Under the pieces are notes generated by a model. The model searched no databases. It was not told where the DNA came from and worked only from the letters and a program-made list of their open reading frames with translations. Below are positions 19,003 through 47,849 of a stretch of DNA of 64,000 bases, one piece after another. A program made the translations under genes and the position numbers. This DNA comes from a virus, in IMG/VR virus record IMGVR_UViG_3300031992_000005, positions 256,001-320,000 of that record; one strand, given 5' to 3'. Position 1 is the stretch's first letter; each line of letters opens with the position of its first letter.

Positions 19003-21228
19003 ATGGCACAGTGGAAAGAAACTCTTGAACCCTATATTAGAGTTCATGAGAAAATTAAGGTTGCAGCACTTAACCCAGTAGCAGGTGAAGATTTAATCAT
19101 CGGGTGTGCATTTATTTCCGATGCAGGACCATCTCTACCTACACTTATTACTAGTCAGAAGGAATTCTTAGAGACTTATTCTTCTCAGGATATTACCGAG
19201 GATTATATTACTAGTCTCGATGATTTCTATACAAACGCTACGACAGGTGGTGATCCTCATCTAGGATCTACTATGTGGCTTAATGCATATCGTTTGGCTG
19301 GTTCTAATACTCTCTTGGCAGTGCGTGCAACAAAAGCAAAGGACCTTTATTACGCTAAGACAAGCGCTTACCCTAACGACGATTATATAGTACGTGATGG
19401 GCAAGTATTAAAGAAGATAAACGTAGGTGACGGATTAAAGATTTGTTACGATAGCGATGAAGATAGTGCAGACTGGAAGAAATTAGGTTGGGCTATTAAA
19501 CTAAGAAATATCGGTATAGTAGGTAACCTAGTAACTGAAGATGGAGTTAAATATGATTATTACGTAGATAATTTGTTTGACCTAGTTGAATATCTCAATG
19601 ATACTAGTGTATTCTTTAGTCCTAATTATGAATTTCACGACAATATTAATCAGGATGACGGAACACCCCAAACCCCAAGTACAACTAAAATATCAGAAGA
19701 TGCACTTCGAAACGGTGACAAGGAGAAAAATACTGTAAAAGCAGTAGTATTTAAGGAACTTTACTTAGGTAGTCGTATCCTAGATGCACTCGACCTTACC
19801 GGCTCAACTACTGAAGAAAGCAATGCTGAATATGGACTCATGAACATAATAGTTGGTCAATCTACTTGGACATCAGGTAATGAGTCACAGCCAGTTATTG
19901 CACTAAATGATGCAAATCATTCAGGTTTTGATCAGAAGAGTACTCTTGATAAAGGCTATGTAACTAACGTGTATAATTCAGCTACTAAGCTAGAAGTTAG
20001 AATTAGACGTTTTAATCATGATGCTGTAGCTACTAAACAGTTAACTAAACCAGATTCTAGTAGGGGCGGAAATTCTCCATATACAGTAGTATTACCTAAT
20101 TCTCTTTCGGCTTTAAACGTAAAGAGGGATTTTTACGAAATTGCCGTTTTTGATCCAAGTGTTAGTGGAGAATCCTTGTATTTTAACCTAGGTACTGTAC
20201 TGAGCTTAGGTGATATGGAATTAGTTGATATAAATAATTCCCTTAAGATGGTACAGATAACTTTGCCTGATAAACTTAGTGATCTTGGATTAGATTATTA
20301 TGGCTCAGCAGGTTCTACTCAGGAGTACTATTACGATTTAAAGCTAGATCCCGATAACACATCTCTTCTAGATGTATCCAACTCTGATATACTCAAGGCA
20401 TTAGATCAGATTCCTCTTAACGAAGTTTATACTGTAGAGGGACTCACTGACCTTGGTTGTACAGAGCCAATGGTTCAGTCTTACATGGCTAATATGGCTA
20501 TTAACGATAACTTCTTCTATCCAATTTCAACAGTTAATAGCACAAACTACTTAGCTATCGCTAATTCTATCCTACGTATTAGTCAGGATTTCTATAAGCT
20601 GTATGCAAGTGCACCTTGGGACGTGGATACTGGCACAATGGGTTGGAAGTTCTATTGCTCACCTAGTGTTCTTTACTGGGAAACCGTAGGTAGAAACAGA
20701 CGTCTTGGTAGAGAGTTTGCTCCAGTTCTTGGTCAGACTAATGGTATTGCACAATATCAGAAGCCTGTAGCTGAATTCAATAAGAAGACCCGTCAGCTAC
20801 TCCTTTCTAAGAAGATCAATACTGTTCTTTGGGATGTTCAGACTCAAGCTTGGGATTGGAACGACAACTATACAAAGCAGACTGAAAACAACATTATGTC
20901 TGATGAGGCTAATAGCCGCCTGATGATTCGTATTAGCAAGGCTATGCCAGTACTTCTCCGTCAGTTTATTGGTAGAAGAATTGGTGCTGTCCTTTGGAAT
21001 GACATGTATAATGTAATCGACTACTGGTTTAAGACTACTATTCTAGGCATGACTTATACAATTGATGGTTATAGAATTACAATTGATGAGTCTAACAATA
21101 CCCCAGAAGATGCTCGTGCAAATCGAGTGAACGTCTTAGTGGAAGTTCGTTATCAGAGAGCTGCTAAGTATATTGAAGTTTATAACAACGCATTCGACGT
21201 TGGTATGGAATTCGACGGCATTATGTAA
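19003..21228 (+). CDS. Tail sheath protein paralogue 1 (T4 gp18-like)
   Basis: 741 aa. The N-terminal pattern ITSQKEFLETYSS ... WLNAYRLAGSNTLLAVRATKAKD parallels T4 gp18 NEVDLVNTFG ... NFLQYGNDLRVVRAVDRD. The C-terminal YRITIDESNNTPEDARANRVNVLVEVRYQRAAKYIEVYN parallels gp18 YRVVCDTTNNTPSVIDRNEFVATFYIQPARSINYITLNF. Confidence 0.7.
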   Translation: MAQWKETLEPYIRVHEKIKVAALNPVAGEDLIIGCAFISDAGPSLPTLITSQKEFLETYSSQDITEDYITSLDDFYTNATTGGDPHLGSTMWLNAYRLAGSNTLLAVRATKAKDLYYAKTSAYPNDDYIVRDGQVLKKINVGDGLKICYDSDEDSADWKKLGWAIKLRNIGIVGNLVTEDGVKYDYYVDNLFDLVEYLNDTSVFFSPNYEFHDNINQDDGTPQTPSTTKISEDALRNGDKEKNTVKAVVFKELYLGSRILDALDLTGSTTEESNAEYGLMNIIVGQSTWTSGNESQPVIALNDANHSGFDQKSTLDKGYVTNVYNSATKLEVRIRRFNHDAVATKQLTKPDSSRGGNSPYTVVLPNSLSALNVKRDFYEIAVFDPSVSGESLYFNLGTVLSLGDMELVDINNSLKMVQITLPDKLSDLGLDYYGSAGSTQEYYYDLKLDPDNTSLLDVSNSDILKALDQIPLNEVYTVEGLTDLGCTEPMVQSYMANMAINDNFFYPISTVNSTNYLAIANSILRISQDFYKLYASAPWDVDTGTMGWKFYCSPSVLYWETVGRNRRLGREFAPVLGQTNGIAQYQKPVAEFNKKTRQLLLSKKINTVLWDVQTQAWDWNDNYTKQTENNIMSDEANSRLMIRISKAMPVLLRQFIGRRIGAVLWNDMYNVIDYWFKTTILGMTYTIDGYRITIDESNNTPEDARANRVNVLVEVRYQRAAKYIEVYNNAFDVGMEFDGIM

Positions 21229-21285: not shown

Positions 21286-21291
21286 CAATAT

Positions 21292-22089: not shown

Positions 22090-22092
22090 TAT

Positions 22093-22647: not shown

Positions 22648-22666
22648 TAAACATGAAGAAAGGTGT

Positions 22667-24274: not shown

Positions 24275-24278
24275 TATT

Positions 24279-24716
24279 ATGTCAGCAGAAAGTATGACCT
24301 CCAGACTATTTGATAAAGCCCAATCTTTATATCAAATAGGTTTAAAACAAATAAAAGTTCAGTTAGCCCTCAATGGCACTAAATTCATTGTCCTCAGACC
24401 AAAAGATAATTCTAAGTGGAAGAGTGTATTTGGGGGTTCATACTCCTCTGATAGTACCTTAGAAAATGACTACGAGCAATTTGATACAGTACTTGTAGTT
24501 AATACTGGTGATATGAAGGATGTATGGAATAGAAACCGAGATTCCTTAGATGCTTGGACAAACGATGGATCTTTGGAAGTTGGCGATGAACTTCAGTATA
24601 CCAGAGATGGGAGAACTTATAGATTCAAAATTTCTCTAAAACAAAGTTTTAGTGAAGCTGCATCATCGTTATTTGAATATACTCTTATGAGTATCATTGA
24701 AACATTGGATATGTAA
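24279..24716 (+). CDS. Hypothetical small structural protein (possible head-tail joining/neck component)
   Basis: 145-aa ORF just upstream of the giant tube-fold protein. The assignment rests on position and size only. Confidence 0.35.
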   Translation: MSAESMTSRLFDKAQSLYQIGLKQIKVQLALNGTKFIVLRPKDNSKWKSVFGGSYSSDSTLENDYEQFDTVLVVNTGDMKDVWNRNRDSLDAWTNDGSLEVGDELQYTRDGRTYRFKISLKQSFSEAASSLFEYTLMSIIETLDM

Positions 24717-24717
24717 A

Positions 24718-27700
24718 ATGGATAAAGAGGTTAAGAGAGATAATATGATCCCAGGGAGTTGTGAAGAATTTACAAGACCTGAGGAAATAAAAGCTCTAAG
24801 TAAATATCTTCGAAAGGTAAAAAAAGATCTTGAGGACAATACTTATTTAATTCGAGATAACCTAGAACTTTATGGTAGAGCAGATGGTAGAACAATGAGG
24901 CATATAGATGAGCTACCCGATAAAGTTGAATCCTTACAAAAGGGAGATCATCCTGAAGTTTCTACCCTCCCTGGATATAAAGAAGTATTAGGTGCTAAGG
25001 ATACTATCGAAGAATTACCTGGAGATAAAATTTCATTAGATGATGTAAGCCAAGAAACCTCCTTAAGTGATCATATAGAAACAATAGAAGTAACTGATAA
25101 ACCTTTTCTCGAAAAGAGACTAGAAATTTTAGAGAATGCTATCAGAGAAGCAGAACTTGAAAATGAAAAGGTATTATTAGAGGACAATACAGAAACTAAG
25201 CTAGATAATTATAAGTCAAGGCTACAGGATACAGAACAAGATATAGAGCTTTCTTCTACTAGAGAAGACCTGGGTAATACTGATAAACCTATAGACCTGC
25301 CAAAGAAAAAAGAAATACTGGAAGATAGCAATAGTAATCCGGACAAGTTAGGAGATTACGTAGAAACACTACATCCAAGCGTAGAGCCACCTCACCTAGA
25401 AGATCATAGAGAGGATCTAATTGTAAAAGACGAAACTAGTTTAAGTAACATTAGTGAGGTTCTTCCTAAGGATGTTGTACTACAGGAACACGAACAGTTT
25501 GATCCTAATAGAGATACTCTTTATGATGCAAATATTGCACGACCTGGAGGAGACAATGATGGGGATTCTACACTAGAAGACTATATAGATCCACTACTAG
25601 GAAAGAGAGAGGATCCTAAGCTTCATGATGAATCAACTATTACAAAAATTCAACCTAAACCTGAAGAAGTTAAACTTCACGACGATTCAACTATCACAAG
25701 AGTTAAGCCAAGTCCGGAGGAGGTTGAATTACATGATGATTCTACTATCACAAGGATTGAACCTAGTCCAGAAGAAGTAGAGTTACATGATGAATCAACT
25801 ATAACAAAAATAAAACCTAGACCTGAAGAGCCAGAGATTCATGATGACTCAACCATAACTCCTATCTTAGGAAAAATACCAGAACCAGAATTATCAGATA
25901 AATCTGAGCAAATTGTTGGTAAAATTCCAACCCCCAGATTAAATGATGATTCAACAATTACAAAGATTCAGCCAGGACCCACCTATCCAGAGCTACACGA
26001 TGATTCAACTATTACGAAGATTCAGCCCAGACCTGAGGAAGTTGAATTACACGATGAGTCTACTATCACCAAAATTCAACCAAGTCCAGAAGAAGTTGAA
26101 TTACACGATGAGTCTACTATCACAAAGATTCAGCCTAAACCTGAGGAAGTAGGGCTACATGATGAATCTACAGTAGTTCAAATAGAACCTTCTCCCGAGG
26201 AAGTAGAGTTACATGACGAATCAACAAGAACATCCATAGATGATGCAGCTTCAGGAGAACATGCGCAGTTTAATCCGAACGGAGATTCTTTATACGATGC
26301 TAATATTATCCTCCCAGGTAATATAGTAGATCCTGAGTTACATGACGATTCAACAGTAACTAAAATTCAACCAAGTCCGGAGGAAGTAGAATTACATGAT
26401 GAATCTACTGTAACTAAGATAGAACCAAGTCCTGAAGAAGTAGAGCTCCACGATGAATCTACTATAGTTCAGATAGAGCCTGGACCTGAGGAAGTTGAAC
26501 TTCACGACGATTCCACTATTACAAGAATAGAACCTAGTCCAGAGGAAGTTGAATTACATGATGATTCTACTGTAACTAAGATAGAACCTAGTCCAGAAGA
26601 AGTTGAATTACATGACGAATCTACTATTACTAGGATTGAACCTAGTCCAGAAGAAGTTGAATTGCACGATGATTCTACGATAACTAAGATAGAGCCTAGT
26701 CCTGAAGAGGTAGAGTTACATAATGAATCTACAGTAACCAAGATAGAACCTAGTCCAGTTGATCCTGAACTTCATGATAATTCTACTATCACTAAAATAG
26801 AACCTAGTCCTGAAGGGGTTGAACTTCATGACGAATCTACTATTACTAAGATAGGTCCAAATCCAGATCCTGAGTTACATGATGATTCAACAGTAACTAA
26901 AATTCAACCCGAACCTGAAGAGGTAGAGTTAACGGGTAGTTCGTCTATTTCTCACTTAGATATTCCAAAAGAACTATCTACAGAAGTACAGGTTAAGTTT
27001 GACCCAAATATAAATAAGCATACCGCTAGAACCAGTGGTATCCCATCAGAGAATCCTATCGGTTGGGGAGAAACTTTAGATGATATTGTAGAAGATATTG
27101 TAGGTGATATTCCGGAAAATTCACTATCAGAGAAAAAGGTCGAATTAGAGGATACTAGTCCTGAGGATAGCATTGAAAAACATAAAGAACTCTTAATAGA
27201 TACTAGCCCTGAAGATAGTATTGAAAAACATAAAGAACTTCTGATAGATACTAGTCCTGAGGATAAGTTGGTCAGCAAAAAGATAATTGAGGAAAATAAT
27301 ATAGAGGCTGATGAGGAAAAGTTTGTACCATACTTAGAGGCAAAAAGAAAGAAAAAACTAGAAGGCTGGGTAAAAGAAAAAAGAAGACAAGTTGACCTAG
27401 AAACTAAAGTAGTTCCTGGTATTCCTGCCCCTACTAATTCTCTTGCAGATGGTCCAGTAGAAGATTTAATTAGGGATATTAGTATGTTAAGGGATAAAGA
27501 TCTCAATGTTTATTACCAAAACATACTTAAGTTCGCGAATGACAATGTAAAGAATTTAGGGAAATGGGGAGAAAAGGCCAGAAGTATTATGTCATCCCTT
27601 GCATCTTCTAAAATGACTTCTGAAGATCTAGAAAACTTTGAAAAAAGACTGTATGGTTCAATAATTCTAGAAGATTACGCAACTAGAAAAGAGGATAGAA

Positions 27701-29328
27701 CAGACGAAGCAGATAATACTGGACTAGATGCCAAACTCAAGAAAACCTTTGAGGATGATAATCTTTTCTTTGAAGGTATTCCTTTATCTAATCTTCCTAA
27801 GAATTACTTTAACTCAGCACATGGTATAGGGTCAAGTGCATCTAATCCTAGCACATATCTTAGATGGTTAGCTGAGCGGTCCGTAGGTAGTGCTCTTAGG
27901 CATGATAAGTCTGGAAAGTTATCAAGCACAAAGAGTAGTCTTAGACAAATAGCACTTGATGAGACTCTATCACTCTTAGTTCTAGCTAGAGATAAAATGG
28001 AGAAGTTGACTAAGAGTAATCGAGATAGACTTCCAGGAAACGAAGGACTCTTAGGTGATGTGGGTAAACTTATTAGTCAAGGTGCTACTGCTGCAGTCAC
28101 TTCACTCGCTAAGAAAGCCGTGAAGGGAATGTTTGGTGCTAATAAACTAGACTACACTGTTCCTCAGAATAGACCTACCGATAAGCAAGAGACTTCTAGT
28201 TTCATTGCCATGAATGATAAGGGTAGAGATAACTCATCTGAAGGTATTGAAGGAAAAGAGTATGGTTTTCAAGAAAATTATCTAAATCCAATTAAGAAGG
28301 ATTATACAAAAGTTATTCCAGGCTTTAACTGGTCATTGGACGGTGTAAATCTCTCTAATAAGAAGTGGAATTCAACAACATATAGATTGAGAGTTCCAGA
28401 TAAAATAGAATCGGGCACTCGAGTATATCCTAGAGCCGGCATAATGACTACTTTAAGTGAACTCTGTGGGCAAGAAAATACTAGTGAAGTTGATACAGTA
28501 GATAAATTATTCAATCTACTAAAAAATAGTCCTTATATATCAACTGCAGGTAAGGTAACTTCGTCAGATGAACATCCATTAAAGGTAAGTACATTAGATT
28601 CTAATATGAGATGGGAAATAATATTTACACCTTTTGTTGGATTAGAAAACGGTGAAATATCTTTTTTACCACCAATAGAAGAAATCAATGTTTGGAATTT
28701 GGTTTACCACGGAATAAAAACGGGCTATAACTATTTTGCACCAATCAATTCGTTTGAATTAGGAAAAGCAAAATTAAATTCAAAAACAGTTCCACTATTC
28801 GAAGGAGAAATTAGTTACCCTACATCAATGGAATTCACTAATGAACTTAGACTTACTTTTGTAGACGATCAATTTAAATCGTGGAGAACTTATTTTGAGA
28901 GATGCGTAGATGCTAGTATATACAATAGTACTGTTCATAGAAAAGAAGATTATGACGGCACTTATGACATACAAGGTAAACTAACTGCCATAGATAAAAC
29001 TTATACTTGTATAGCTCCCTATAAAAATATAGCTTTTAGGTGTACTATCTATTCAATGACTCCTCAGTACAGTACAGTATCAAAGTATGATCTTCTCCTA
29101 GTAATGAAAGATTTCGCGGAAGAGAGATCGGGTGATATTGACGCCAGTGGACAAGATCTAACGGTTAATTTTAGTATTGTTGGTGAAAACCCTAGAAACG
29201 AATTAACTAAAGTTACTACACCTAACGCTATCAAATCAAATGTTTATGCACCTCCTAGAAATAATAATAGAGGGGAATATGAATCCATTATTAACGGCGG
29301 AATCGATAACATGGTTAAATTACTTTAA
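24718..29328 (+). CDS. Giant repeat protein with C-terminal T4 gp19/gp48/gp54-like tube-fold domain
   Basis: The likely start is ATG 24718 (MDKEVKRDN), just after the upstream stop; the track start at 24697 overlaps the upstream gene. There are about 23 copies of an 18-aa unit (ELHDDSTITKIEPSPEEV). The C-terminal MRWEIIFTPF ... NELRLTFVDDQFKSWRTYFERCV parallels the 197-aa tube protein (MWEFHFLTAP ... GTLTLGFVDREDQAITYFADDWRQKI). Confidence 0.6.
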   Translation: MDKEVKRDNMIPGSCEEFTRPEEIKALSKYLRKVKKDLEDNTYLIRDNLELYGRADGRTMRHIDELPDKVESLQKGDHPEVSTLPGYKEVLGAKDTIEELPGDKISLDDVSQETSLSDHIETIEVTDKPFLEKRLEILENAIREAELENEKVLLEDNTETKLDNYKSRLQDTEQDIELSSTREDLGNTDKPIDLPKKKEILEDSNSNPDKLGDYVETLHPSVEPPHLEDHREDLIVKDETSLSNISEVLPKDVVLQEHEQFDPNRDTLYDANIARPGGDNDGDSTLEDYIDPLLGKREDPKLHDESTITKIQPKPEEVKLHDDSTITRVKPSPEEVELHDDSTITRIEPSPEEVELHDESTITKIKPRPEEPEIHDDSTITPILGKIPEPELSDKSEQIVGKIPTPRLNDDSTITKIQPGPTYPELHDDSTITKIQPRPEEVELHDESTITKIQPSPEEVELHDESTITKIQPKPEEVGLHDESTVVQIEPSPEEVELHDESTRTSIDDAASGEHAQFNPNGDSLYDANIILPGNIVDPELHDDSTVTKIQPSPEEVELHDESTVTKIEPSPEEVELHDESTIVQIEPGPEEVELHDDSTITRIEPSPEEVELHDDSTVTKIEPSPEEVELHDESTITRIEPSPEEVELHDDSTITKIEPSPEEVELHNESTVTKIEPSPVDPELHDNSTITKIEPSPEGVELHDESTITKIGPNPDPELHDDSTVTKIQPEPEEVELTGSSSISHLDIPKELSTEVQVKFDPNINKHTARTSGIPSENPIGWGETLDDIVEDIVGDIPENSLSEKKVELEDTSPEDSIEKHKELLIDTSPEDSIEKHKELLIDTSPEDKLVSKKIIEENNIEADEEKFVPYLEAKRKKKLEGWVKEKRRQVDLETKVVPGIPAPTNSLADGPVEDLIRDISMLRDKDLNVYYQNILKFANDNVKNLGKWGEKARSIMSSLASSKMTSEDLENFEKRLYGSIILEDYATRKEDRTDEADNTGLDAKLKKTFEDDNLFFEGIPLSNLPKNYFNSAHGIGSSASNPSTYLRWLAERSVGSALRHDKSGKLSSTKSSLRQIALDETLSLLVLARDKMEKLTKSNRDRLPGNEGLLGDVGKLISQGATAAVTSLAKKAVKGMFGANKLDYTVPQNRPTDKQETSSFIAMNDKGRDNSSEGIEGKEYGFQENYLNPIKKDYTKVIPGFNWSLDGVNLSNKKWNSTTYRLRVPDKIESGTRVYPRAGIMTTLSELCGQENTSEVDTVDKLFNLLKNSPYISTAGKVTSSDEHPLKVSTLDSNMRWEIIFTPFVGLENGEISFLPPIEEINVWNLVYHGIKTGYNYFAPINSFELGKAKLNSKTVPLFEGEISYPTSMEFTNELRLTFVDDQFKSWRTYFERCVDASIYNSTVHRKEDYDGTYDIQGKLTAIDKTYTCIAPYKNIAFRCTIYSMTPQYSTVSKYDLLLVMKDFAEERSGDIDASGQDLTVNFSIVGENPRNELTKVTTPNAIKSNVYAPPRNNNRGEYESIINGGIDNMVKLL
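25612..26925 (+). repeat. In-frame 54-nt (18-aa) tandem repeat array, about 23 units in two blocks
   Basis: The unit is (E)LHD[DE]ST[IV]T[KR]I[EQ]PSPEEVE. The array is interrupted at about 26220-26335 by QFNPNGDSLYDANI, which echoes QFDPNRDTLYDANI upstream of the first block. Confidence 0.9.
27151..27267 (+). repeat. In-frame 48-nt tandem repeat, 2.4 copies
   Basis: DTSPEDSIEKHKELLI occurs twice, followed by DTSPEDK. The copies differ at synonymous positions. Confidence 0.85.
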
Positions 29329-29333
29329 TAATT

Positions 29334-31484
29334 ATGTACATTAAATTAGGATCAACAACATTAAATTATCCTTCTATACCGTACGATGATTTTATGGTAT
29401 TTTCCGAAGTTATCGACTCTCAAGTAGGATATGAAAAGCCAGTATTGGTTAGAACAATAGAGCAATTAGATAAATGGTTTGGTAGAGATTTTACTAGTAG
29501 AGATTATTTTGAGGAACTAATCAATAGTGGAGTAACTCTCTTACTAACAAAACCCCTAGGATCCTATTCCAATGATCTCGGAATAGAGTTCTCTGGCGAT
29601 GGTATCACGGTTGTGGATGATATTTATACATACAATAGTCTACCCACTACTACGGATCAGACCAAAGTTTATAAAGTCTATAATCCAAATGGCACTGGTG
29701 AATTTACAGGTACCCTAGGTGATACTGAGATAACTTATGACTTATATCGATGGATAGCAGATAATGAATCTATACCTAATGGCTATTACAAAAAGGATGA
29801 TTTACCTAATATCATTAAAGCAGATTCACAGTCACTGAATAATAGGGATACTCTTAGGTTATTTTCCACAGACAATACTACCGTCTACACGCATTTCGTA
29901 TATAGTGAACGCGAAAATACAGGATCAACAGAAGAGGGTTCATTGAATCTAAGTAACTTGAACTTGGAAAGAATAGAATTAGGTTATCAGACTCTAGTCT
30001 TTGATATAGTAGAGCGTGAAGATCCAGGTAATACTCTTCAAGAAAACTCTTATATAATTTTCCCTAATGAACCTACGTCAGATAAGACTGAAAATACTTT
30101 ATACTATCACGGAAATGTAGATGAGCTAGGGGTTGATAGTAAATATTATGAAGAAGGCGCTGAGATAAGCTTTGATAGCTTAGATGATCTTTTTGGGAAA
30201 TTAGAAGGAGTAGAAAAAGTAGGTAATAAGTTAGTTGCAAACCGACCTATCGATACTACATTCTTTTATGAAGGTCTCGGGATAGATCTTATACCAAATT
30301 ACCTAGAAACTCATCATATTCTTGATAAATATGAGAACTCTAAGGATAGTTCTACAGATGAACCAATCAATAATCGTATTGTAGATTTTTGGTCTAAAAC
30401 TATTGGTACTGCCGGTATTGACGGTAATATAGCTGTGACTATAGAGGAATCTTTAGATGAGGGAAATTATAGAATTATTATTGAGAGATTTGGTCACCTA
30501 GAAATTTTTGAGGGACCTATAAAAGTTACCGCAGGAATAGAAAGACTAGATTATCGAATAAGTAGATTATCTGAACTAGTGTACTGTGATTTCGCTGAAG
30601 GAATAGAAGAATTACCGTTAGGTACATGGACTTTGAAAGGAGCCATTGAAGAAACGTATAATTATGAATCTTATAACAATGGCTTAGATGAGATCTTTGA
30701 GGAAGCTGATAGAACTTTTCCAGATTTTTTCTTAATACCTGATTCTTCTTTATATGTACCGGAAAGAAATACATTAGATGAGAATATAGAGGAACACGAA
30801 AAGTTCTATAAAAAAATACTAGGATATGCCAAAGAGTCTGGATGTCAAGTATTAGTTGAGAATGAAGACACTAAAAATAATTATAAATGTAACTACACGG
30901 GTGATGTGTTTAATAGATTAGTGTACTTTTATAGATCAATGATGCTAGGTGATGTCCCTAGACCAGGCTACTATATATTTATTAGGGGATTATTAAGAGA
31001 CATTTATTCAATGTCTACTGATATAATCTACTATAAAAGCATAAAGGATCTGAGCAAAGATAAAAATTCATATGAAGAAACAGAGGAATTCGAGGATCTG
31101 AAAAAATATAAATGCAATTATTTAATAGACAACGGATTAATGTACTATTATAAAGAGTATCAGAACGGCGATAAGTATGAGACTTCAATATGGATGAGAT
31201 TTGTTCTCGGAAAAATCAAAAGAGAGTTAGAAAAGAATAAGTGGAAATACCTAGGTGAAAAAAATCAGGGAAAAATAAGAGAAAATATTTCTGCAATTCT
31301 CAATAAAGTTTCCTCTAATTTTGGAATAATTAGAGACTTAAGCATACTAGACATTAGATTCCACTTAGAAAGTAATAAGGTTGATGTTGATATTGAAACA
31401 ACAATATCAGACCTTGTAAAAAATCACATGATAGTTAATTTTACTATAAATTATAATAAGCAAGATGGCAAATACAGTATCTGA
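29334..31484 (+). CDS. Tail sheath protein paralogue 2
   Basis: 716 aa, directly upstream of and overlapping the tube gene. It has a sheath-like N-terminus (VLVRTIEQLDKWFGRDFTSRDYFEELINSGVTLLLTK) and C-terminus (SIWMRFVLGKIKRELEKNKWKYLGEKNQGKIRENISAIL ... NKVDVDIETTISDLVKNHMIVNFTINYN). Confidence 0.6.
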   Translation: MYIKLGSTTLNYPSIPYDDFMVFSEVIDSQVGYEKPVLVRTIEQLDKWFGRDFTSRDYFEELINSGVTLLLTKPLGSYSNDLGIEFSGDGITVVDDIYTYNSLPTTTDQTKVYKVYNPNGTGEFTGTLGDTEITYDLYRWIADNESIPNGYYKKDDLPNIIKADSQSLNNRDTLRLFSTDNTTVYTHFVYSERENTGSTEEGSLNLSNLNLERIELGYQTLVFDIVEREDPGNTLQENSYIIFPNEPTSDKTENTLYYHGNVDELGVDSKYYEEGAEISFDSLDDLFGKLEGVEKVGNKLVANRPIDTTFFYEGLGIDLIPNYLETHHILDKYENSKDSSTDEPINNRIVDFWSKTIGTAGIDGNIAVTIEESLDEGNYRIIIERFGHLEIFEGPIKVTAGIERLDYRISRLSELVYCDFAEGIEELPLGTWTLKGAIEETYNYESYNNGLDEIFEEADRTFPDFFLIPDSSLYVPERNTLDENIEEHEKFYKKILGYAKESGCQVLVENEDTKNNYKCNYTGDVFNRLVYFYRSMMLGDVPRPGYYIFIRGLLRDIYSMSTDIIYYKSIKDLSKDKNSYEETEEFEDLKKYKCNYLIDNGLMYYYKEYQNGDKYETSIWMRFVLGKIKRELEKNKWKYLGEKNQGKIRENISAILNKVSSNFGIIRDLSILDIRFHLESNKVDVDIETTISDLVKNHMIVNFTINYNKQDGKYSI

Positions 31485-32058
31485 TCTGGTGAGAGGAAGT
31501 AATGACTTACACCAAAAATTTATTGATTACGAAAAATCCTATAAGGATGGTAATAAAGAATTTCTTCGTGGTGATATGTGGGAATTTCATTTTCTTACCG
31601 CACCGAAGATTGTTTACTATCCAGGAGACGACTTAATTAACAAACGCCTAAATTCAGTGCAGGTAGGTATCGATTATAGCGTAATCGGTTTTGAAAAGAG
31701 AATGAGAAATAACTATGTAATCTATCAACAAGCTGACCAGTCTACGTACGGTACACTCACGCTTGGCTTTGTCGATCGTGAAGACCAGGCAATCACTTAC
31801 TTTGCAGATGACTGGAGACAAAAGATTGCTGACCGTGATACTAAGTATTCTTTCAGAAAGGATGATGTAGTAGCAGACTGTGAACTTTACATTACAAACT
31901 CATCTCGTATTGACGTTCGTTACTTACGTTTCTACAACTGTATCATAACTGATGCAACTACTGATGAAAGTGGTGCAACTGACCCTGGTACAGATCGTGC
32001 TGATATTAATATTAGCATGAAATTCGAACATTACACAAGAGAGTTTAAGAATCTTTAA
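31465..32058 (+). CDS. Tail tube protein (T4 gp19-like)
   Basis: 197 aa. Shows the gp19-family pattern: DMWEFHFLTAP ... GTLTLGFVDREDQAITYFADDWRQKIAD. It sits immediately after a sheath gene. Confidence 0.7.
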   Translation: MANTVSDLVRGSNDLHQKFIDYEKSYKDGNKEFLRGDMWEFHFLTAPKIVYYPGDDLINKRLNSVQVGIDYSVIGFEKRMRNNYVIYQQADQSTYGTLTLGFVDREDQAITYFADDWRQKIADRDTKYSFRKDDVVADCELYITNSSRIDVRYLRFYNCIITDATTDESGATDPGTDRADINISMKFEHYTREFKNL

Positions 32059-32117: not shown

Positions 32118-32534
32118 ATGATATTCAAACAAAAAACATATAGCCTTGGTGATAAGATTCACTTTACTAAATTTATTGGCATTTTAACTGGATTTAGCAA
32201 TAAAGCTAAGAACTTACACTGGGCAGCCCCTGCTAAGAATATTCACACTTATCTGGATGACCTATATGGAATTATAAATGATTTTACAGATACTATAGCA
32301 GAGGGGTACATGGGAATCCTAGGTAAAATGGGACCTAAGGATATAGTAGTCGTACCTTGTGAGGTAGGAGACGCTAGAACATTTATAGACGAACTCATAG
32401 ACCAGACAAAAAAGTTTTATGAAGGTATCCCAGATTCAACTGAATTTAAGGGAATAACTAGTGAAACAGAAACCTTCATGCAGAACTGTCAAAAGTATCG
32501 CTACTTGTTCAGCTTGTGCAGTAATGACTTCTAA
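32118..32534 (+). CDS. Leader-tagged Dps/ferritin-like four-helix-bundle protein (tentative)
   Basis: N-terminus MIFKQKTYSLGD. KAKNLHWAAPAKNIHTYLDDLYGIINDFTDTIAEGYMGILGKMGP resembles the Dps pattern HW..G..F..LH..LDE.Y.....D.IAER...LG..P, although the spacing differs. Confidence 0.35.
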   Translation: MIFKQKTYSLGDKIHFTKFIGILTGFSNKAKNLHWAAPAKNIHTYLDDLYGIINDFTDTIAEGYMGILGKMGPKDIVVVPCEVGDARTFIDELIDQTKKFYEGIPDSTEFKGITSETETFMQNCQKYRYLFSLCSNDF

Positions 32535-38895: not shown

Positions 38896-41800
38896 ATGGC
38901 TAATAACAATCAAAATCAGCCAAAGAAAGACGAATCCTACGCTAACTATCAACAGGCAGGTCAGCAATTGCTTCAAATGAATGCTGAAAGACAGAAGAAC
39001 ATAGCTCTTCAGAGACAGGCTAATGCCAATCAGCAAGGGACTACTGAATTACTGTCACAAGCGGGCGCAATGGCAACTATGGGAGGAGGTGGTGCAGCAA
39101 TAAATCCACAGACTCAAGCTATGTTAAGGAAATATGGCTATGGTCAGCCTAAGGTACAAAGGGCTCAAGGTAGAGAAGTAAAAATTGTTCCGAATAATAT
39201 TGTTATTAATAACAACTATAACACAGTATCCAATAACAATGTTATTCCTCAACAAGGTGGTGGGAATGACGCTGCTAATAGTCAGAGTAGATTCAAGACT
39301 TGGATTAGTGGGATTTTTGCTAGACAGAAAGAGGAAACTGCTAAGAGAGACCGAGAATATCAAAAGCAAGAGTGGGCTATCGGTAAGAGCACTAATAGAA
39401 TGCTCAGACAGATGACTGATGCTGGCCGTAATGTAGCAAATGCAATAAATCCTAGAAATTTAGGTTCTTCTTTAGGTGGTCAAATAAAAACACTGCTCTT
39501 CCTATTTGGTATGAGATTTTTGTCTAAGAACTGGACTAAAATCTTGGATATAACTACTACCATAACTGGATATATAAAAGAAGGATTGGCCTTTTTTGGT
39601 ATAGGTGATGAAACTAGAGTAAAAGCCCTAGCAGCACAAGGTAAGGATTTTCGAGGCAGATTTATTTCATTTTTCACTGAACCTGCTAGAGCCAGGGATG
39701 GAAAAACTACAGTAATCAGTCTCATGAGGGAAATGATACAAAGCTTTGGAGATTACATTAAGACTTTCATTGAAGGTCAGATGGAACTTCGAGGTATCGC
39801 CATGAGAAGTATCAAATTCCCAAAAATAGACTTTAAACCTGCAGATTCGTCTGGTTGGAATCCATTAGCTAGTGCTATAAATAGTGCAATATCTAGTTTA
39901 GGTGATTCGTTGACAAATGCTCTTTCTGGCATGGGAACCTACATTGGTGATATATTTACTGCCTTTGTAAATCCTAAAGCTGGTGCAAGAAGAGCAATTG
40001 TTTCTAATGTTAGAAACTTAGGTACAGAAAATTCAAGAAAAAATCAGGAATACTATAGAAATGTAAATAGATTTACTGCAGTCAATGTATGGGATGGCGA
40101 TAAAGCAAATGGTTGGGCAGTAAATGCTGGAGACGCAGCGAATGAATTAGTAGGAGAAGATTATTATGATGCAGCGAATCATAGATACTTAAAGGGTAGT
40201 AGAAGATACGCACTCTTGGAGAATGCTCTAGAAGGTAATAGGTTAAGAAATACAGCTGGTTCTCAAATTAGCCAAGGTCGAGACTTGTTAGGTGCTATTA
40301 ATAATGCGAAAACACATGGTAGAATAGATACTGCTAGATTTGCAAGTGGTGTATCTAGACTCTATGAAGCAGCTAAGGAAAATGAAAATGGCGTAGTAGT
40401 TGACCAGGAATTTGTAAATACACTGATTGGAGAGAAACTAAAGAGAGATCTTACCTCAACTAGGGACTTAGTACCTGTTAAGATGAAGTATGTCGTAGCT
40501 GACCTAGATGCTTCAGAATACGGAAATCGAGGTTCAGAGTTATATAAGGAGGCTGCTGGAACTTCAGATGACTTGTTAGTTGGAAAAGTTCCATTATTAG
40601 GTTGGGGATTAAATGTAGCTACCGCAGGTATACAAAAATTAGGGAATTCACTTGCTACTCACCTTAATTCTAAAAAACTAATATTAGTTCCTGAATCAGA
40701 TCCTAGACCTGCAGTTACTAAGATTAAGGATGTTTGGGGTGCTAATACAACTGGTGATGTAAAAGACCTAGGAAAACCTGTCAGTACTTATTACCGATTG
40801 ACTCCAACTGCCATAGAGAAGATAATGCAACACCGCATTAGTAAGGACGCAGATATAGATAACTATGAAACATTCTTACCAGGTGTTGATAAGTTCTTAG
40901 TTCGTGCAGGTGGTGGAGAAGCAGCAGTTAATAAAAAATGGAGTGAAAGCCAGAAGAAAAACCTTCAGTTTACTCAAGAGCGTTTTGGAGGTAATCAGCG
41001 AGATTATGATATTACAAGCGGTTTTAATGAAATAAGACGTATTGAACTTGCTGAACAAAAATTACGATCTAAGATGGAGAATCATCCATTTATGGGTTAT
41101 GTTAATCGTGCTGTTAATAATGCAGAAAAACTGGTTAATAAAGGAGTTGAAGGTGTTAATAACGTTGTAAGGTGGTTTGGTACAACAGATCTTGGTAGAA
41201 ATCTTGCAACTGAGAGAGTTACTAATAAAACTGTTAGAGCTAATGCCCAAAGAATAATGGATTTCCTCATTAATGAGGGTGGATTTACTCCAGATCAAGC
41301 GATAGGAATTCTTGGAAACTTGTATATAGAATCAGGCAGATCCCTCAGTCCACGAGCAATAAATCCCAACGATAGTGGAAAAAGGTCTGTAGGCCTAGCT
41401 CAATGGAGAGACGATCGTGATAAGGCTCTTCAACAATTTGCTTCCAGTCGAGGAAAATCTTGGGATGATTTCGATACTCAGCTAGAGTTTCTTCTATGGG
41501 AACTTGGGAACAAAGAAAGAGCTGCAAACAATGCCGTTAGAAAATCGAATAATTTCCAGGAAGCTGCATATGCTTGGAGACTTTTTGAGAGATATGATGG
41601 CTGGGATACTGGCGGAAGAACTACGGGCTTGCATAAAGAACGACAGAAGGCCGCTTGGTCTATGTATAATATGCTCAAGAACGATGGATACTTTGAAGGA
41701 AAGAGATTAAGTGTTAATGGTTCTACAAGTAATGACGGCAGTGATCTAATGAATTCAAATATACCAGAAGGCTCTATCTTCATATCTACTGCACGCCCTG

Positions 41801-44490
41801 GAGCAAATACTTCGGGCGGATACAATTATTATAATTCACCTGGATCGTTCTCTATGCCTTCTACAGCAGCTGCTCCAAGCAATAATGGCTATTACTTACC
41901 ATTACAGAATAACTCTATGGTTATAACTTCACCTTTTGGTAATCGTGCAGATCCCGTTAATAAAGGTAAAGTACAATTTCATAAAGGTATCGATATTCGA
42001 GCTAATAATGAGAATATTTACGCCACAGAGAACGGAGGTAGAGTTGTTAAGGTAAACAATAATGCTGGCTCTGGTGGTGGAAAGTCTGTAACAGTAGAGT
42101 ATGATCGTGGTAACGGTAATAAAATACAAACCACCTATAGACACTTATCTAGCATTGGTGTACGAGAAGGTGAAGGTGTTCAGGCAGGTCAACAATTAGG
42201 TGTATCAGGAAATACTGGTCGTAGATCAACAGCACCACACTTACATTTCGAAGTTAGTACTATAGATAGTAACGGCAATTCACAAAAGGTAGATCCTACT
42301 GCATATCTTGCAGATATAAGTCAGGCAGGAGGATTATCTTTGAATATGTCTTATAAAAACGGAAGTGGAGGTATAGTAGTAAATGGTAGTTCTGAATCTA
42401 TTTTCGAAAATGATACTATTGAACGCCCTTTCGGTAAAGAAGATATCAAAACTGAAAAAGAACTAAAGCAACAAGAGGTAAAATCAGCCGTTGCTAGAGA
42501 AGCAATGAGGGTTTGGGAAAAATATCCGGAACTAAAAGAAGCTTTTGATGATTATGATCATTTCGAAAATTATTGGATTACAAAAGGTCCTAGTAAAAGA
42601 AAAAAGCTAATGAAAGGCTATATGGCTTATCATAATCATAAAAAAGCCATTGATGCAGACCCGAACCTATCTAAGTTAGGCGTACATCATTTTGCTGAAA
42701 TATGGGCTAGTAAATCAACAGAACCTTGGGAAGTGATAAACAGAGCTGAACAAGGTCGACAGTTTGAAAAGATAGAAGAAGGTGCTGATGCTTTTGCAAA
42801 GAAAATAGAAGAACAATCGAAAGACACTCTTTGGATAAGAAATGATTATAAGAGAGGTTCGGACAAAAAATGGAAAGATGAAGTAGATGCTATAGGAGAA
42901 AGCGGGGCCTACAAGAGACTTTATAAGGATATTCTAGAGGGAAGAAAAGGCTCTGGTTATGATGATAAGATAGCAGCATCTATTCTATTTGGAGATGATT
43001 ATAATAAATTACGAGAAGAGCTAAACGATACTAACACAGCTATTACTAATGCAAAGTACAGAGGCATTAATCACGACAAGGAAATTACGAAGAAAGACTT
43101 CCTGCAAAAAAAGTTAAGAAATTTTGAACAATCTGCATATAACTATACAACGCTAGCAAATAATGAAAGTAAATCTAAGAGAAAACAACTCTTTTCACAA
43201 AATCAAAAAATAGCCCAAATAAAAAATCAAATTTTAAGTTATGAGGAGGAGAGAAAAGCTATTACTGCAAAAGCTGAAAGACAACTACTTAATTGGCCTA
43301 ACATGACTGCAGAAGAGATTAATGAGCTAGAATTAAATACTGTAGCAGATATTGCTTGGATCAATGATAAGCAGGATAGTCTCCGACAACAACTATATAA
43401 GATAATGGATGGGCTAGGTGAAGATCAAGAGGAGTTTAAAATCAAGCTAGAGCAAGAAATTAAATTACAAACAAAGACAGGAGAAGAACTTTGGGGTGAA
43501 TTTAATAATATTATGGATAGCGGTAAATCTCAGATAGAGGCATTAGGTGAAATGATGCGTGAGTATGGAAAAGAAGTTCTTGAAAAAATGAGGAATGAAT
43601 TAGCAAAAACTATAACATTCTTCCAAGATCATGAACTTACTGAAAACATGTTCGATCCTAATTATAATCCTACTGCACAATTAACCGCCCTTGAAAAAAT
43701 ACAAGAACAGAAGAAAGCTTTAGTCGAAGAATATGGATCTTGGACAAAAGTTCTAGACGATAAAAGAATTCCACTTGAACTTGCGGAAAAAAATATAAAA
43801 CAAAACGCTGCAAATGTTCAAGTTACTATTCAAGGTAATCAAGCTCTATCTGAAAATGGATTGGCTGAACCTATAAAAAATGCAGATGAACTCAATACAA
43901 AAGCACAGGGAGTAATTAATAAAGTTGATAAGCTCTCTAATAGAAAAACCACTATGGAAATACTTCCAAAAGGTTGGGGAGGAACTGGGTATGATGAAAA
44001 TTATACAAGTAATAAGCCAGATGAAAAACCAGTCTTTACGTCTAAATATTATAATTCCGGATACATTGATGAGAAAACTGGTAAGATAAATGGTCCTCTG
44101 ACAGATTCCTCAGGATTTAATAAAAAGAGAAAAACGCCAGTCAAACTATCTAGTGGTAAAACTGTAGGAGGCTATACTGAACCGGGTAATCCACTAACCC
44201 CTTCTGGATATGTCCTTCACAAAGATGAGTTTGTAGTTAATTCTAAGTCTCTGAAAAACCCATTGATTAGTGATATTGTCCGAGCAATTGATGTTTATCA
44301 GGGAACTAATAAGGACTCAGTTAAGACACCAATCTCTAAAGAATCGATATTAACTGCAGAATCTTCAAAAATTACTGCAATTAACACCGCAGAAACAAAT
44401 GCTAGATTAGAGCAGTTAACTCAAGCTGTATTAAATTTAGGAAGAAGTGGAGGAACACCAAAAACTAAAGTTCCTTCTTATACACCATGA
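38896..44490 (+). CDS. Tape measure protein with embedded tail-lysozyme and M23 peptidase domains
   Basis: 1864 aa, between the chaperone pair and the baseplate genes. The lysozyme-like segment (nt ~41236-41610) reads GILGNLYIESGRSL ... SVGLAQWRDDRDKALQQFA ... QLEFLLWELG. The M23 segment (nt 41929-42255) reads FHKGIDI ... GNTGRRSTAPHLHFEV. The C-terminal third is long and coiled-coil-like. Confidence 0.8.
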   Translation: MANNNQNQPKKDESYANYQQAGQQLLQMNAERQKNIALQRQANANQQGTTELLSQAGAMATMGGGGAAINPQTQAMLRKYGYGQPKVQRAQGREVKIVPNNIVINNNYNTVSNNNVIPQQGGGNDAANSQSRFKTWISGIFARQKEETAKRDREYQKQEWAIGKSTNRMLRQMTDAGRNVANAINPRNLGSSLGGQIKTLLFLFGMRFLSKNWTKILDITTTITGYIKEGLAFFGIGDETRVKALAAQGKDFRGRFISFFTEPARARDGKTTVISLMREMIQSFGDYIKTFIEGQMELRGIAMRSIKFPKIDFKPADSSGWNPLASAINSAISSLGDSLTNALSGMGTYIGDIFTAFVNPKAGARRAIVSNVRNLGTENSRKNQEYYRNVNRFTAVNVWDGDKANGWAVNAGDAANELVGEDYYDAANHRYLKGSRRYALLENALEGNRLRNTAGSQISQGRDLLGAINNAKTHGRIDTARFASGVSRLYEAAKENENGVVVDQEFVNTLIGEKLKRDLTSTRDLVPVKMKYVVADLDASEYGNRGSELYKEAAGTSDDLLVGKVPLLGWGLNVATAGIQKLGNSLATHLNSKKLILVPESDPRPAVTKIKDVWGANTTGDVKDLGKPVSTYYRLTPTAIEKIMQHRISKDADIDNYETFLPGVDKFLVRAGGGEAAVNKKWSESQKKNLQFTQERFGGNQRDYDITSGFNEIRRIELAEQKLRSKMENHPFMGYVNRAVNNAEKLVNKGVEGVNNVVRWFGTTDLGRNLATERVTNKTVRANAQRIMDFLINEGGFTPDQAIGILGNLYIESGRSLSPRAINPNDSGKRSVGLAQWRDDRDKALQQFASSRGKSWDDFDTQLEFLLWELGNKERAANNAVRKSNNFQEAAYAWRLFERYDGWDTGGRTTGLHKERQKAAWSMYNMLKNDGYFEGKRLSVNGSTSNDGSDLMNSNIPEGSIFISTARPGANTSGGYNYYNSPGSFSMPSTAAAPSNNGYYLPLQNNSMVITSPFGNRADPVNKGKVQFHKGIDIRANNENIYATENGGRVVKVNNNAGSGGGKSVTVEYDRGNGNKIQTTYRHLSSIGVREGEGVQAGQQLGVSGNTGRRSTAPHLHFEVSTIDSNGNSQKVDPTAYLADISQAGGLSLNMSYKNGSGGIVVNGSSESIFENDTIERPFGKEDIKTEKELKQQEVKSAVAREAMRVWEKYPELKEAFDDYDHFENYWITKGPSKRKKLMKGYMAYHNHKKAIDADPNLSKLGVHHFAEIWASKSTEPWEVINRAEQGRQFEKIEEGADAFAKKIEEQSKDTLWIRNDYKRGSDKKWKDEVDAIGESGAYKRLYKDILEGRKGSGYDDKIAASILFGDDYNKLREELNDTNTAITNAKYRGINHDKEITKKDFLQKKLRNFEQSAYNYTTLANNESKSKRKQLFSQNQKIAQIKNQILSYEEERKAITAKAERQLLNWPNMTAEEINELELNTVADIAWINDKQDSLRQQLYKIMDGLGEDQEEFKIKLEQEIKLQTKTGEELWGEFNNIMDSGKSQIEALGEMMREYGKEVLEKMRNELAKTITFFQDHELTENMFDPNYNPTAQLTALEKIQEQKKALVEEYGSWTKVLDDKRIPLELAEKNIKQNAANVQVTIQGNQALSENGLAEPIKNADELNTKAQGVINKVDKLSNRKTTMEILPKGWGGTGYDENYTSNKPDEKPVFTSKYYNSGYIDEKTGKINGPLTDSSGFNKKRKTPVKLSSGKTVGGYTEPGNPLTPSGYVLHKDEFVVNSKSLKNPLISDIVRAIDVYQGTNKDSVKTPISKESILTAESSKITAINTAETNARLEQLTQAVLNLGRSGGTPKTKVPSYTP

Positions 44491-46018: not shown

Positions 46019-47157
46019 GGATAGAAACGTCACATAAAATTTCAGTATTCTTTAGTCCTTGGTTTGGTGAAACTCCAGATGATGCTGGCGATTTTAGTTT
46101 TACAAAACTACATCTATATGAAGAATTAGGTGGTAGTATTGCCTATGGAGACATAGACCTAGTATCTCTAGGTACTGACAGAGCAAACGAGCTCCTACAA
46201 AAACAAAGAACTGGAGTAATACAAATTGAACAAGAGGAAAGAGTTTCTTATAATATTCCAGTCTGTATTACAAAAGTATCTATGTATAGTAATTTAATTT
46301 CGTTAGGTTTTGTTTGTTGTAAATCAAAAGATTTCTTCTCTAAGAGAAAAACAGATACCTTAGAAATGGATATCTCAAGTGCTATACAGAATCTCTATTC
46401 TGGGAATAGTGATATTAGGTGTGAATCTGATGTTCAAGGAAGTTTGAAATTTTATCAACAAATGGAAACTGACTTAAGTCTTTTGACTAGGTTATGTTAT
46501 TCCTATAAAAAAGATTCTATCTTTGGCCTGGGTTGGAATGGATTAGTTATAAAAGAAACTTTTGGCGAGAAGAATAGTAAAGGGAATAAAGAACCTGATG
46601 AAAATATGATTCTCCCATTAGATGCAGAAGTTTTCCAAAAAGAGGAAAGAACTGAAACTTATTATCCACAAAACTATAAACCCCCAGTTAATGTTTGGGA
46701 AGACACTGAAGGAAAAATAGCCACACAGGATTATACTCAGGATGAGCCTATTAATCCAAGGGTCATAATGAAGCAGACAGAAAATGGTATGCAAACTTTA
46801 ATGATGCATAAGGATTATTACCAAATGCACGAGAATTATACATACAATACTAATTTTATGGCCACTAAGATGTACTCTTCTATAAAAGTTGTTGATCCGA
46901 TTGCTATTCCTAAATATATGCTAGGAGATGTAGTAGAAGTAGATAAACAAAGTCTTAAGGCTGATAATCTAAATTGGCCTGTTAAGTACTACTTAGTTAA
47001 ATCAAATGAATTCTTCATATCAATAGACGGTTCTCAGTTTGTTGATGAGAATGGTGCTAATTTCTCATGGACATCAACTCTCTTAGGACTAGAGGAAATT
47101 GATGGTACGGTTGCTATTGGTAGTGAAGAAGATCCAAGGGATAAAGAAGAAAAATGA
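46015..47157 (+). CDS. Baseplate hub protein (P2 gpD / Mu gp44 position)
   Basis: 380 aa, translationally coupled on both sides, directly upstream of the spike gene. Confidence 0.45.
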   Translation: MRIETSHKISVFFSPWFGETPDDAGDFSFTKLHLYEELGGSIAYGDIDLVSLGTDRANELLQKQRTGVIQIEQEERVSYNIPVCITKVSMYSNLISLGFVCCKSKDFFSKRKTDTLEMDISSAIQNLYSGNSDIRCESDVQGSLKFYQQMETDLSLLTRLCYSYKKDSIFGLGWNGLVIKETFGEKNSKGNKEPDENMILPLDAEVFQKEERTETYYPQNYKPPVNVWEDTEGKIATQDYTQDEPINPRVIMKQTENGMQTLMMHKDYYQMHENYTYNTNFMATKMYSSIKVVDPIAIPKYMLGDVVEVDKQSLKADNLNWPVKYYLVKSNEFFISIDGSQFVDENGANFSWTSTLLGLEEIDGTVAIGSEEDPRDKEEK

Positions 47158-47849
47158 AAAAGAATTTTGGAGTAATAAAAAAAGTGATCGACCCGGATTT
47201 ATTTACAGTTGAGGTAGACATTCCGGGCGAAAATGAAGCGCTTAGAGCTTTTCCAAAAAGAGGAGAAGTGGATGAACCTAGGGTGGGCGATGTCGTTTGG
47301 TTAGAGGAAGTTGACCCACTCTATCATTCATACTACCTTTATGAGAAATTGAAGGAAAATAACTTCATCGGAATAAGAGCTCGTGGAAAAGTACTTAGAC
47401 TTAGTTCAGATGAGATATCAGTTGGCATTTTCGATCCATCTGACGAGTCATGGTATGATAAGCAAGACGGGGCCGATCCAACACCAGAGCCAACATCATG
47501 GATCAAGCTAGACAAGGACGGTAACATTGATATTAATGGGGAGAAAAATACTACCATTAATATAAAAGGTAATGTTACTATCAACGTAGATGGAGATGCA
47601 AAGATCGACGTAAAAGGTAATGCTGAAACTAACGTAGGTGGAGATTCAAAATTAACTGTTTCAGGGGACACTGAAATTAAATCACCTAATGTGAAGATTA
47701 ATAGTTCTTCTCAAGTTCAGATTACTGGAGGTGGATCATTTAACATGAGAGGTACTGCATCACCTAGTGTGAATGGACCAATGAATTGTCTTAAAATGTG
47801 CGTTTTTAGTGGAGCCGTACATGGCTCAGATACTTGTACAGGAATTTAA
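47154..47849 (+). CDS. Baseplate central spike (gpV / Mu gp45 / gp5-like)
   Basis: N-terminal OB-fold pattern GVIKKVIDPDLFTVEVDIPG ... PRVGDVVWLEE. Beta-helix repeats INIKGNVTINVDGDAKIDVKGNAETNVGGDSKLTVSGDTEIKS. Cys/His-rich apex CLKMCVFSGAVHGSDTC. Confidence 0.75.
   Translation: MKKNFGVIKKVIDPDLFTVEVDIPGENEALRAFPKRGEVDEPRVGDVVWLEEVDPLYHSYYLYEKLKENNFIGIRARGKVLRLSSDEISVGIFDPSDESWYDKQDGADPTPEPTSWIKLDKDGNIDINGEKNTTINIKGNVTINVDGDAKIDVKGNAETNVGGDSKLTVSGDTEIKSPNVKINSSSQVQITGGGSFNMRGTASPSVNGPMNCLKMCVFSGAVHGSDTCTGI

Follow-up and report, generated by a model that had tools for sequence, protein, structure and literature searches.

A protein with a predicted tail-tube fold and a giant acidic repeat arm in the tail module of uncultured huge phages

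The stretch of DNA analysed here, referred to as the window, comprises 64,000 nucleotides (nt) of the IMG/VR virus record IMGVR_UViG_3300031992_000005, corresponding to bases 256001-320000 of a 353,025-bp record that carries direct terminal repeats and belongs to an uncultured gut or rumen phage. Within the window, a gene on the plus strand (24718..29328) encodes a protein of 1536 amino acids (aa), P0001, that we read as a structural component of the phage tail. Its C-terminal domain is predicted to adopt the fold of tail-tube proteins, and this domain is preceded by a giant acidic arm that is rich in tandem repeats and tipped by a conserved motif at the N-terminus. This combination of a predicted tube-fold domain with a giant acidic repeat arm and a conserved tip is a previously undescribed design, and it recurs across a large huge-phage clade. 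The reading that we prefer, and hold with roughly even confidence, is that the protein forms a hexameric ring of the tube stack, likeliest at the junction with the baseplate, and that long polyanionic tether arms extend from this ring.

Tube-fold ring proteins are central to starting, capping, and triggering contractile tails, and the known ones bear modest extra domains. If the arms of P0001 and its relatives are external to the tube, they would represent a new type of virion appendage, the length of which is altered by the gain and loss of repeats. Arms that follow the tube would instead add a further length-related system to the tape measure. In both cases structural biologists would gain a defined target in a group of phages with tails that nobody has yet imaged.

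A predicted tail-tube fold at the C-terminus

The C-terminal part of the protein was modelled twice with AlphaFold, once over aa 928-1536 (model 1) and once over aa 1217-1536 from an alignment of 48 sequences (model 2), and Foldseek was used for comparisons with the PDB and BFVD. Model 1 has a mean predicted local distance difference test score (pLDDT) of 48.8, with values of 60-80 in the last 200 residues. Nearly all of its Foldseek matches are chains of the tail-tube family, the best in the PDB being a chain from the neck of phiKZ. Model 2 has pLDDT values of 80-90 over aa 1296-1494, a region with long paired strands and one long helix. All 50 of its top 50 matches in the PDB belong to the tube family, with a probability of 1.00 and E-values down to 1.7e-6. 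The T4 gp19-type tube (E 1.7e-6) is among them, together with chains from the baseplate-tube complex and the neck of T4 and from the P1 baseplate. Pyocin, AFP, PVC, and diffocin particles are represented by their tubes. In BFVD there were 134 matches at E <= 1e-3, and those that are named are T4 gp19-type tube proteins. The modelled domain extends from ...MRWEIIF to FSIVGENP... (28603..29199, plus strand) and has 40 invariant columns across 18 lineages. These models point to a tail-tube fold for aa 1296-1494, of the class with a beta-sandwich core, a flanking helix, and a long beta-hairpin.

The original prediction, made from the letters of this stretch, had placed a gp19/gp48/gp54-type tube domain in the same region. 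At the level of the fold this proposal holds, in model 2 and its Foldseek matches in the PDB and BFVD, but sequence profiles from Pfam, the PDB, and PHROGs do not bear it out. For example, searching the whole 353-kb genome with the Pfam family Phage_T4_gp19 (PF06841, gathering threshold 28.2 bits) gave no match at E <= 10. Comparisons of 18 members of the P0001 family with Pfam at E <= 1, of family members with PHROGs, and of the whole of P0001 with Pfam and PHROGs likewise brought up no tube family. Searches of the PDB with hmmsearch gave just coiled-coil or low-complexity matches from the arm when the profile covered the full-length protein, and no tube protein when it covered the C-terminal region. 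Similarly, hhalign comparisons with profiles of every neighbouring gene, including that for a 197-aa tube-like protein described below, gave no match to the C-terminal domain. Just one catalogued family, the unannotated phrog_4332, matches this domain repeatedly, and it does so weakly: 10 of the 18 members tested gave a hit, the best at E 7e-4, and P0001 itself was not among them. Profile searches had been named beforehand as the test of the tube assignment, and their finding of no tube-family similarity formally speaks against it. P0001 is best described as a tube-fold protein for which membership of the gp19/gp48/gp54 family cannot be demonstrated from sequence.

Architecture of the protein and its repeat arm

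The open reading frame (ORF) of 1536 aa at 24718-29328, recognized in the original prediction, was confirmed by ORF calling and translation. It starts with an ATG at 24718, two bases past the stop of a 145-aa gene, and all of the segments that follow are given on the plus strand. The N-terminus, MDKEVKRDNMIPGS..., opens a conserved tip (aa 1-45; 24718..24852) with the family consensus motif IPG(S)C..FTRPEEI.ALSKYLK, which is present in nearly all full-length relatives and weak in L067. After it comes a degenerate acidic repeat region (aa 61-259; 24898..25494) with an isoelectric point (pI) of 4.4 and a net charge of -31, in which recurrent L....E units are seen in the family consensus and which falls in the disordered class on a charge-hydropathy plot.

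The central feature of the arm is an array of 23 units of 18 aa (54 nt), ELHD[DE]ST[IV]T[KR]I[EQ]PSPEEV, at aa 302-737 (nt 25621-26928). The units were delimited with Tandem Repeats Finder and by their motif, and fall into two blocks: block 1 has 12 units, some of them degenerate (aa 302-515; 25621..26262), and block 2 has 11 (aa 541-737; 26338..26928). Each block stands behind a punctuation element of the type QF[DN]PN..LYDANI. The first of these, QFDPN..LYDANI, occupies aa 260-301 together with a spacer (25495..25620), and the second, QFNPN..LYDANI, occupies aa 517-540 (26266..26337). A third, degenerate KFDPN element is located at aa 760-789 (26995..27084), and it is followed by 2.4 copies of a 16-aa repeat, DTSPEDSIEKHKELLI, at aa 812-850 (27151..27267; period 48 nt, 88% matches). 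The original prediction had recognized about 23 units in two blocks, the QF[DN]PN elements ahead of them, the third element, and the 16-aa repeat, and all of these were confirmed; the QF[DN]PN elements start at aa 260 and 517, and the third element starts at aa 760 (nt 26995), in agreement with the prediction.

Taken over aa 1-927, the arm is strongly acidic (net charge -141, pI 4.2-4.6) and its composition is of the disordered class, with 11% proline in the repeat array; a scan of the arm for hydrophobic or transmembrane segments found none. On this composition, aa 1-~930 are probably extended or disordered. The conserved region beyond the arm (aa 928-1150; 27499..28167) is basic, with a pI of 8.9, and is predicted to be rich in helices, which appear with low confidence in model 1. 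It contains the motifs YLRW.AE..VG and LDETL.LLV.ARD..EK.TK.NRDRLPGN. A variable linker (aa 1151-1250; 28168..28467) lies between this region and the tube-fold domain.

Age and conservation of the repeats

Within the array, the periods detected by Tandem Repeats Finder are 54, 108, and 162 nt, the highest score being 581. The copies are 74% identical in DNA and 78% identical in protein, and the differences between pairs of copies number 452, 230, and 1464 at codon positions 1, 2, and 3. Estimates by NG86 among the copies give 0.13-0.14 for non-synonymous divergence (dN) and 2.5-3.8, which is saturated, for synonymous divergence (dS), with a dN/dS of ~0.04-0.05. Because dN is 0.13 where dS is saturated at more than 2.5, the copies are old and the peptide is under purifying selection. 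This agrees with the earlier suggestion that the peptide repeat is maintained and that its copies differ mostly at synonymous or conservative positions, and from these sequence comparisons the repeats are judged to be functional.

The relative L001 (protein P0002) comes from another metagenome and is 94% identical. It has an equal number of units and zero indels in the array, so that the array is stable in the lineage of the window; since L001 is an independent assembly with equal copy number, an assembly artefact is unlikely. The linker has a different history. Between P0001 and L001, 41 of 92 aligned linker residues differ, with an 8-aa indel, a dS of 1.16, and a dN of 0.39, whereas outside the linker dS is 0.08-0.41 and the immediate flanks are nearly identical. 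By this comparison, aa 1151-1250 are a mosaic, recombined patch. Elsewhere in the tail module, the genes at 22093 and 22667 are only 83% and 78% identical to those of L001, while the genes at 21256 and 24279, like that for the sheath, are 99.9-100% identical.

Distribution and length variation of the family

Relatives of P0001 are numerous. A word-indexed search returned >700 homologues, and for most of those listed the contig is 100-430 kb long. When the last domain was used as a profile in an exhaustive search, 313 clusters at 50% identity were recovered, of which 193 had E-values below 1e-30, and in the proteins matched by this profile the tube-fold domain is nearly always C-terminal within a length of 900-3000 aa. 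No relative was found among deposited phage genomes when three family members were compared with 50,697 of them by tblastn. In the sequences searched, the family is confined to uncultured huge phages. It is universal in a large clade of them, with genomes of 200-430 kb from gut and rumen, and the gene always occupies the same place in the tail module.

Across the family, the ~45-aa N-terminal motif and the last ~610 residues are conserved, and the middle varies. The shared layout begins with the N-terminal motif and passes through a repeat arm and the helix-rich region to a variable linker and then the tube-fold domain. The repeat unit depends on the lineage, being 18 aa in P0001 and 15, 16-17, 36, 42, or 69 aa elsewhere; arm length ranges from roughly 200 to >2000 residues; and the sequence of the repeats is not kept between lineages, with the exception of its acidity. 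In a sister clade of close strains the protein is 1103-1369 aa long, and the indels are whole blocks of 18, 36, 51, 69, or 174 aa; a second repeat accounts for further ones of 31 or 74 aa. The original prediction had proposed an array prone to changes in copy number. This is what the sister clade displays, but no such change is seen between the two assemblies of the lineage of the window.

At least eight IMG/VR contigs of 250-400 kb (L013-L015, L028, L032, L037, L063, and L068) start or stop inside the gene, in or just past the arm, and these breaks are probably due to the repeats or to heterogeneity between strains. In practice, assemblies from this clade call for caution at this gene, where breaks are frequent. 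A short form that seemed to have no arm (L065, 354 aa) was rejected as an artefact. The orthologue extends over L065:5403-9107, all 13 of its in-frame stops are TAG, and the genes downstream look normal, while the protein in its true form contains an array of 15-aa repeats; judged from its sequence, the L065 phage probably reads TAG as sense. The phage of the window uses the standard code.

Some relatives have 200-1400 extra residues beyond the tube-fold domain. A fusion of this domain with the 716-aa gene that lies downstream in the window was considered and dismissed, as the relatives with an internal domain have unrelated C-terminal extensions. Two C-terminal extensions contain a Cys...His motif that resembles a Cys/His cell-wall hydrolase, an identification that was not retained as Pfam gives it no support. 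In the metagenomic relative P0279 (2419 aa), aa 1967-1998 match the Gelsolin repeat (Pfam E 1.9e-7, above the cut-off), which is odd in a phage protein.

A proposed ring of the tube stack with tether arms

Contractile tails stack rings of tube fold at the junction with the baseplate, and examples of these have been described in T4, in P1 (Tub/PmgG), and in phiKZ (the initiator gp88 and the spacer gp182) (PMC13250141, PMC12810830). The phiKZ spacer gp182 bears an N-terminal extension (PMC13250141). In Mu, the initiator gp43 has a tube-like and a helix-rich domain that are connected via a flexible loop, and it is located between the hub and the wedges (PMC11915804). The C-terminal module of P0001 may combine the three ingredients of Mu gp43, with a conserved region predicted to be helix-rich, a variable linker, and a predicted tube-fold domain, and for this reason a ring at the junction is favoured.

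We infer that six copies of P0001 would make up a single ring in the tube stack. Its likeliest site is the junction of tube and baseplate, where it would act as an initiator or as a tube-linking or spacer ring. In the C-terminal module (aa ~928-1536) the helix-rich domain would pack onto the hub or the wedges, and a flexible, variable linker would connect it with the tube-fold domain. A polyanionic, proline-punctuated arm of ~930 residues would leave the ring, tipped by a docking motif of ~45 residues. We infer that this arm would lie outside the tube and not in its lumen, where it could serve as a length-tolerant spacer or tether, in the manner of an entropic bristle and with no precise ruler. 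Its length would shift by the gain and loss of repeat units.

Comparison with known systems reveals both likenesses and differences. The junction rings T4 gp48/gp54, P1 Tub/PmgG, and phiKZ gp88/gp182 are like P0001 in their tube fold, the baseplate-tube chains of T4 and P1 being among its best matches, and in belonging to a contractile-tail module; accessory parts on a tube-like core are normal for such rings. They differ in that they have no detectable sequence similarity to P0001, which has ~1300 residues N-terminal to the tube-fold domain, and in that the publications consulted on them describe no polyanionic tandem-repeat arm or strain-level variation in repeat number. Known junction proteins are roughly 170-360 aa long, a range drawn partly from the lengths of solved chains. 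Mu gp43 has the reverse domain order, the tube-like domain of P0001 being C-terminal, and it has no sequence similarity to P0001 and no repeat arm; LysM was not detected in P0001 with Pfam.

Several points weigh against a junction ring with external arms. The call of the fold comes from predicted structures only, and no sequence profile ties the domain to the tube family. Foldseek E-values for tube, initiator, and neck or terminator chains are within one order of magnitude, and because these chains score about equally the position of the ring is not fixed by the fold; the order of the genes does not point to an initiator either. The helix-rich region has pLDDT values below 50 in model 1 and no structural match of its own. 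Profile searches of the PDB and PHROGs gave no identity for the conserved neighbours of the gene.

The tail module

ORF calling with table 11 gave an unbroken run of plus-strand ORFs across the window. In all lineages examined the gene order is sheath, 277-aa, 184-aa, 535-aa, 145-aa, the P0001 homologue, 716-aa, and tube-like gene. The sheath protein of the window (741 aa; 19003..21228) is identified by phrog_23 (E 6e-9) and is the sole sheath match of the genome. Of the two genes that always adjoin that for P0001, the one upstream (145 aa; 24279..24716) is 59-79% identical between lineages and has no family match in Pfam or PHROGs, and the one downstream (716 aa; 29334..31484) is recognized by synteny. 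A role for the 716-aa product as a second sheath was rejected, as no sheath similarity emerged with BLASTP, hhalign, PHROGs, or the PDB, or when the whole genome was searched with phrog_23. The 197-aa tube-like protein (31465..32058; phrog_45 ‘tail tube’, E 1.3e-6) is encoded by the most conserved gene of the module, with 59-71% identity across lineages, and by its sequence is probably the major tube protein.

A block of small genes separates the tube-like gene from an overlapping pair of ORFs of 251 aa and 105 aa (37900-38655 / 38576-38893), which are candidate tail assembly chaperones. Behind this pair is the gene for an 1864-aa protein (38896..44490) with matches to Phage_lysozyme2 at aa 783-927 (Pfam E 2.6e-28) and to Peptidase_M23 at aa 1027-1134 (Pfam E 4.4e-20). 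Tape-measure PHROGs match its M23 segment, and with its place behind a chaperone-like pair the protein is a candidate for the conventional tape measure, or a tail lysin. The relative L072 has a matching layout, with ORFs of 253 aa and 91 aa and then a giant gene. Relatives of the 1864-aa protein are 956-1867 aa long, and the shorter ones align solely to its first ~500-970 residues. Further downstream, candidate hub and spike genes lie at 44487-47849, among them the gene for a gp5-like spike (47154..47849). All of these genes are on the plus strand.

Alternative positions and functions

The tube-fold domain might instead form a ring at the neck end of the tail, as a terminator or tail completion protein like T4 gp3/gp15 or phiKZ gp98, with the six acidic arms serving as neck whiskers or collar fibres. 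T4 portal-neck-tail chains (9mkb_q3, q5, and AC) rank level with the baseplate chains in the structural comparison, and it is a phiKZ neck chain that tops the PDB list for model 1. The gene also lies upstream of the probable tube gene, a frequent site for a terminator, and in phiKZ the extension of the terminator reaches the sheath and the neck has whiskers (PMC13250141). However, seven small genes at 13424-18960, from the capsid genes to the sheath, occupy the more usual site for neck and terminator functions, and the pairing of helix-rich and tube-like domains resembles the initiator Mu gp43. We consider a neck ring to be unlikely, though far from negligible.

In a different model, the arm follows the tube, either within its lumen or over its surface, as a length element anchored at both ends, either as a second tape measure or as a vernier with one repeat per ring. 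Conserved ends with a variable, repeated middle are the classic layout of a tape measure, and P0001 is like lambda gpH, T4 gp29, and Mu gp42 in being large, with conserved ends and a variable middle that may contain tandem repeats. The putative ring domain of P0001 is C-terminal, and it is by this end that tape measures sit at the baseplate; units of 15-18 aa, if largely extended, could span about one ring rise (~35-38 Å in Mu and phiKZ). With the length of the lysozyme/M23 protein in the same genome taken as a proxy for tail length, the two lengths (in aa, the P0001 homologue first) rise together in several clades: 845/956, 1139-1324/1088-1176, 1557/1826, and 1536/1864; a further genome has 1529/1867. 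However, the covariation fails in other clades (1204/1786 and 1414/1193), and strains of the sister clade differ by two repeats (36 aa) in the P0001 homologue when their tape-measure candidates are equal in length. The length-related element suggested in the original prediction lacks robust support, as the two lengths rise together in some clades and not in others.

Other differences from tape measures point in the same direction. The chaperone-like pair precedes the 1864-aa gene and not that for P0001, an arrangement found also in L072, and by gene position the conventional tape-measure candidate is a separate protein. Its arm is acidic, proline-punctuated, and of the disordered class, and is not helix-like. 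The protein ends in a tube-fold domain, and we know of no tape measure that does so. No hydrophobic period is common to the lineages; 3 of 17 arms, from two lineages, exceeded shuffled controls, and they did so at differing periods. A chain fixed to a ring would block the exit of DNA, and the cleavage motif [KR]-x-[FY]-S is absent from P0001 and kept at no domain boundary in the family. Furthermore, the lumen of the Mu tube is negatively charged (PMC11915804). A strict ruler role is not supported, and we regard a length element along the tube as improbable.

The vernier can be stated more specifically by analogy with nebulin on actin, although we give this version little chance. Each unit of 15-18 residues would meet one tube subunit in successive rings, six chains from one ring would track six protofilaments, and the number of repeats would set or stabilise the length of the tail. 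If this were so, the gain or loss of repeats would alter tail length in single-ring steps.

It is very unlikely that the protein, or an arm released from it, is injected into the host with or ahead of the DNA, its polyanionic repeats acting as a DNA-like decoy or binding to DNA ends. The dense negative charge of the arm (-141 over 927 aa) would suit such a role, and Mu gp43, which is both a tube initiator and a DNA circularization protein, has been discussed with respect to entry into the host cytoplasm (PMC11915804). However, P0001 lacks the [KR]-x-[FY]-S protease motif, searches of Pfam, PHROGs, and the PDB by profile found no similarity to a known DNA mimic or DNA-binding family, and the repeats are unconserved between lineages apart from their acidity. 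The extended fibre raised in the original prediction is not favoured either: a tail fibre or receptor-binding protein is unlikely given that both ends of the protein are conserved, the C-terminus most of all, and the middle alone varies. That the long ORF is an artefact of assembly or annotation, through collapse or expansion of repeats or fusion of two genes, is scarcely credible: many related contigs end within the repeat array, but the independent metagenome assembly has equal architecture and copy number, a single frame encodes the N-terminal motif, the arm, and the C-terminal module in hundreds of homologues, collapse is unlikely for copies that are just 74% identical in DNA, and the lone apparent short form is explained by TAG recoding.

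Other features of the tail and baseplate genes

Some further observations concern the neighbours of P0001 and not the protein itself. The sheath gene is separated from the sole detectable tube gene by ~10 kb and six genes (19003-32058), an unusual spacing for a myovirus. By eye, the consensus of the 277-aa gene directly 3' of the sheath is helix-rich, and it has no tube family match. A DUF5856 or Dps-like protein of 138 aa (32118-32534; Pfam E 9.2e-9; phrog_858) is encoded directly 3' of the tube gene and is kept in several relatives. Within the baseplate module, a homing-endonuclease-like gene (47860-48849; phrog_314, E 3.9e-20) is located directly 3' of the gene for the gp5-like spike.

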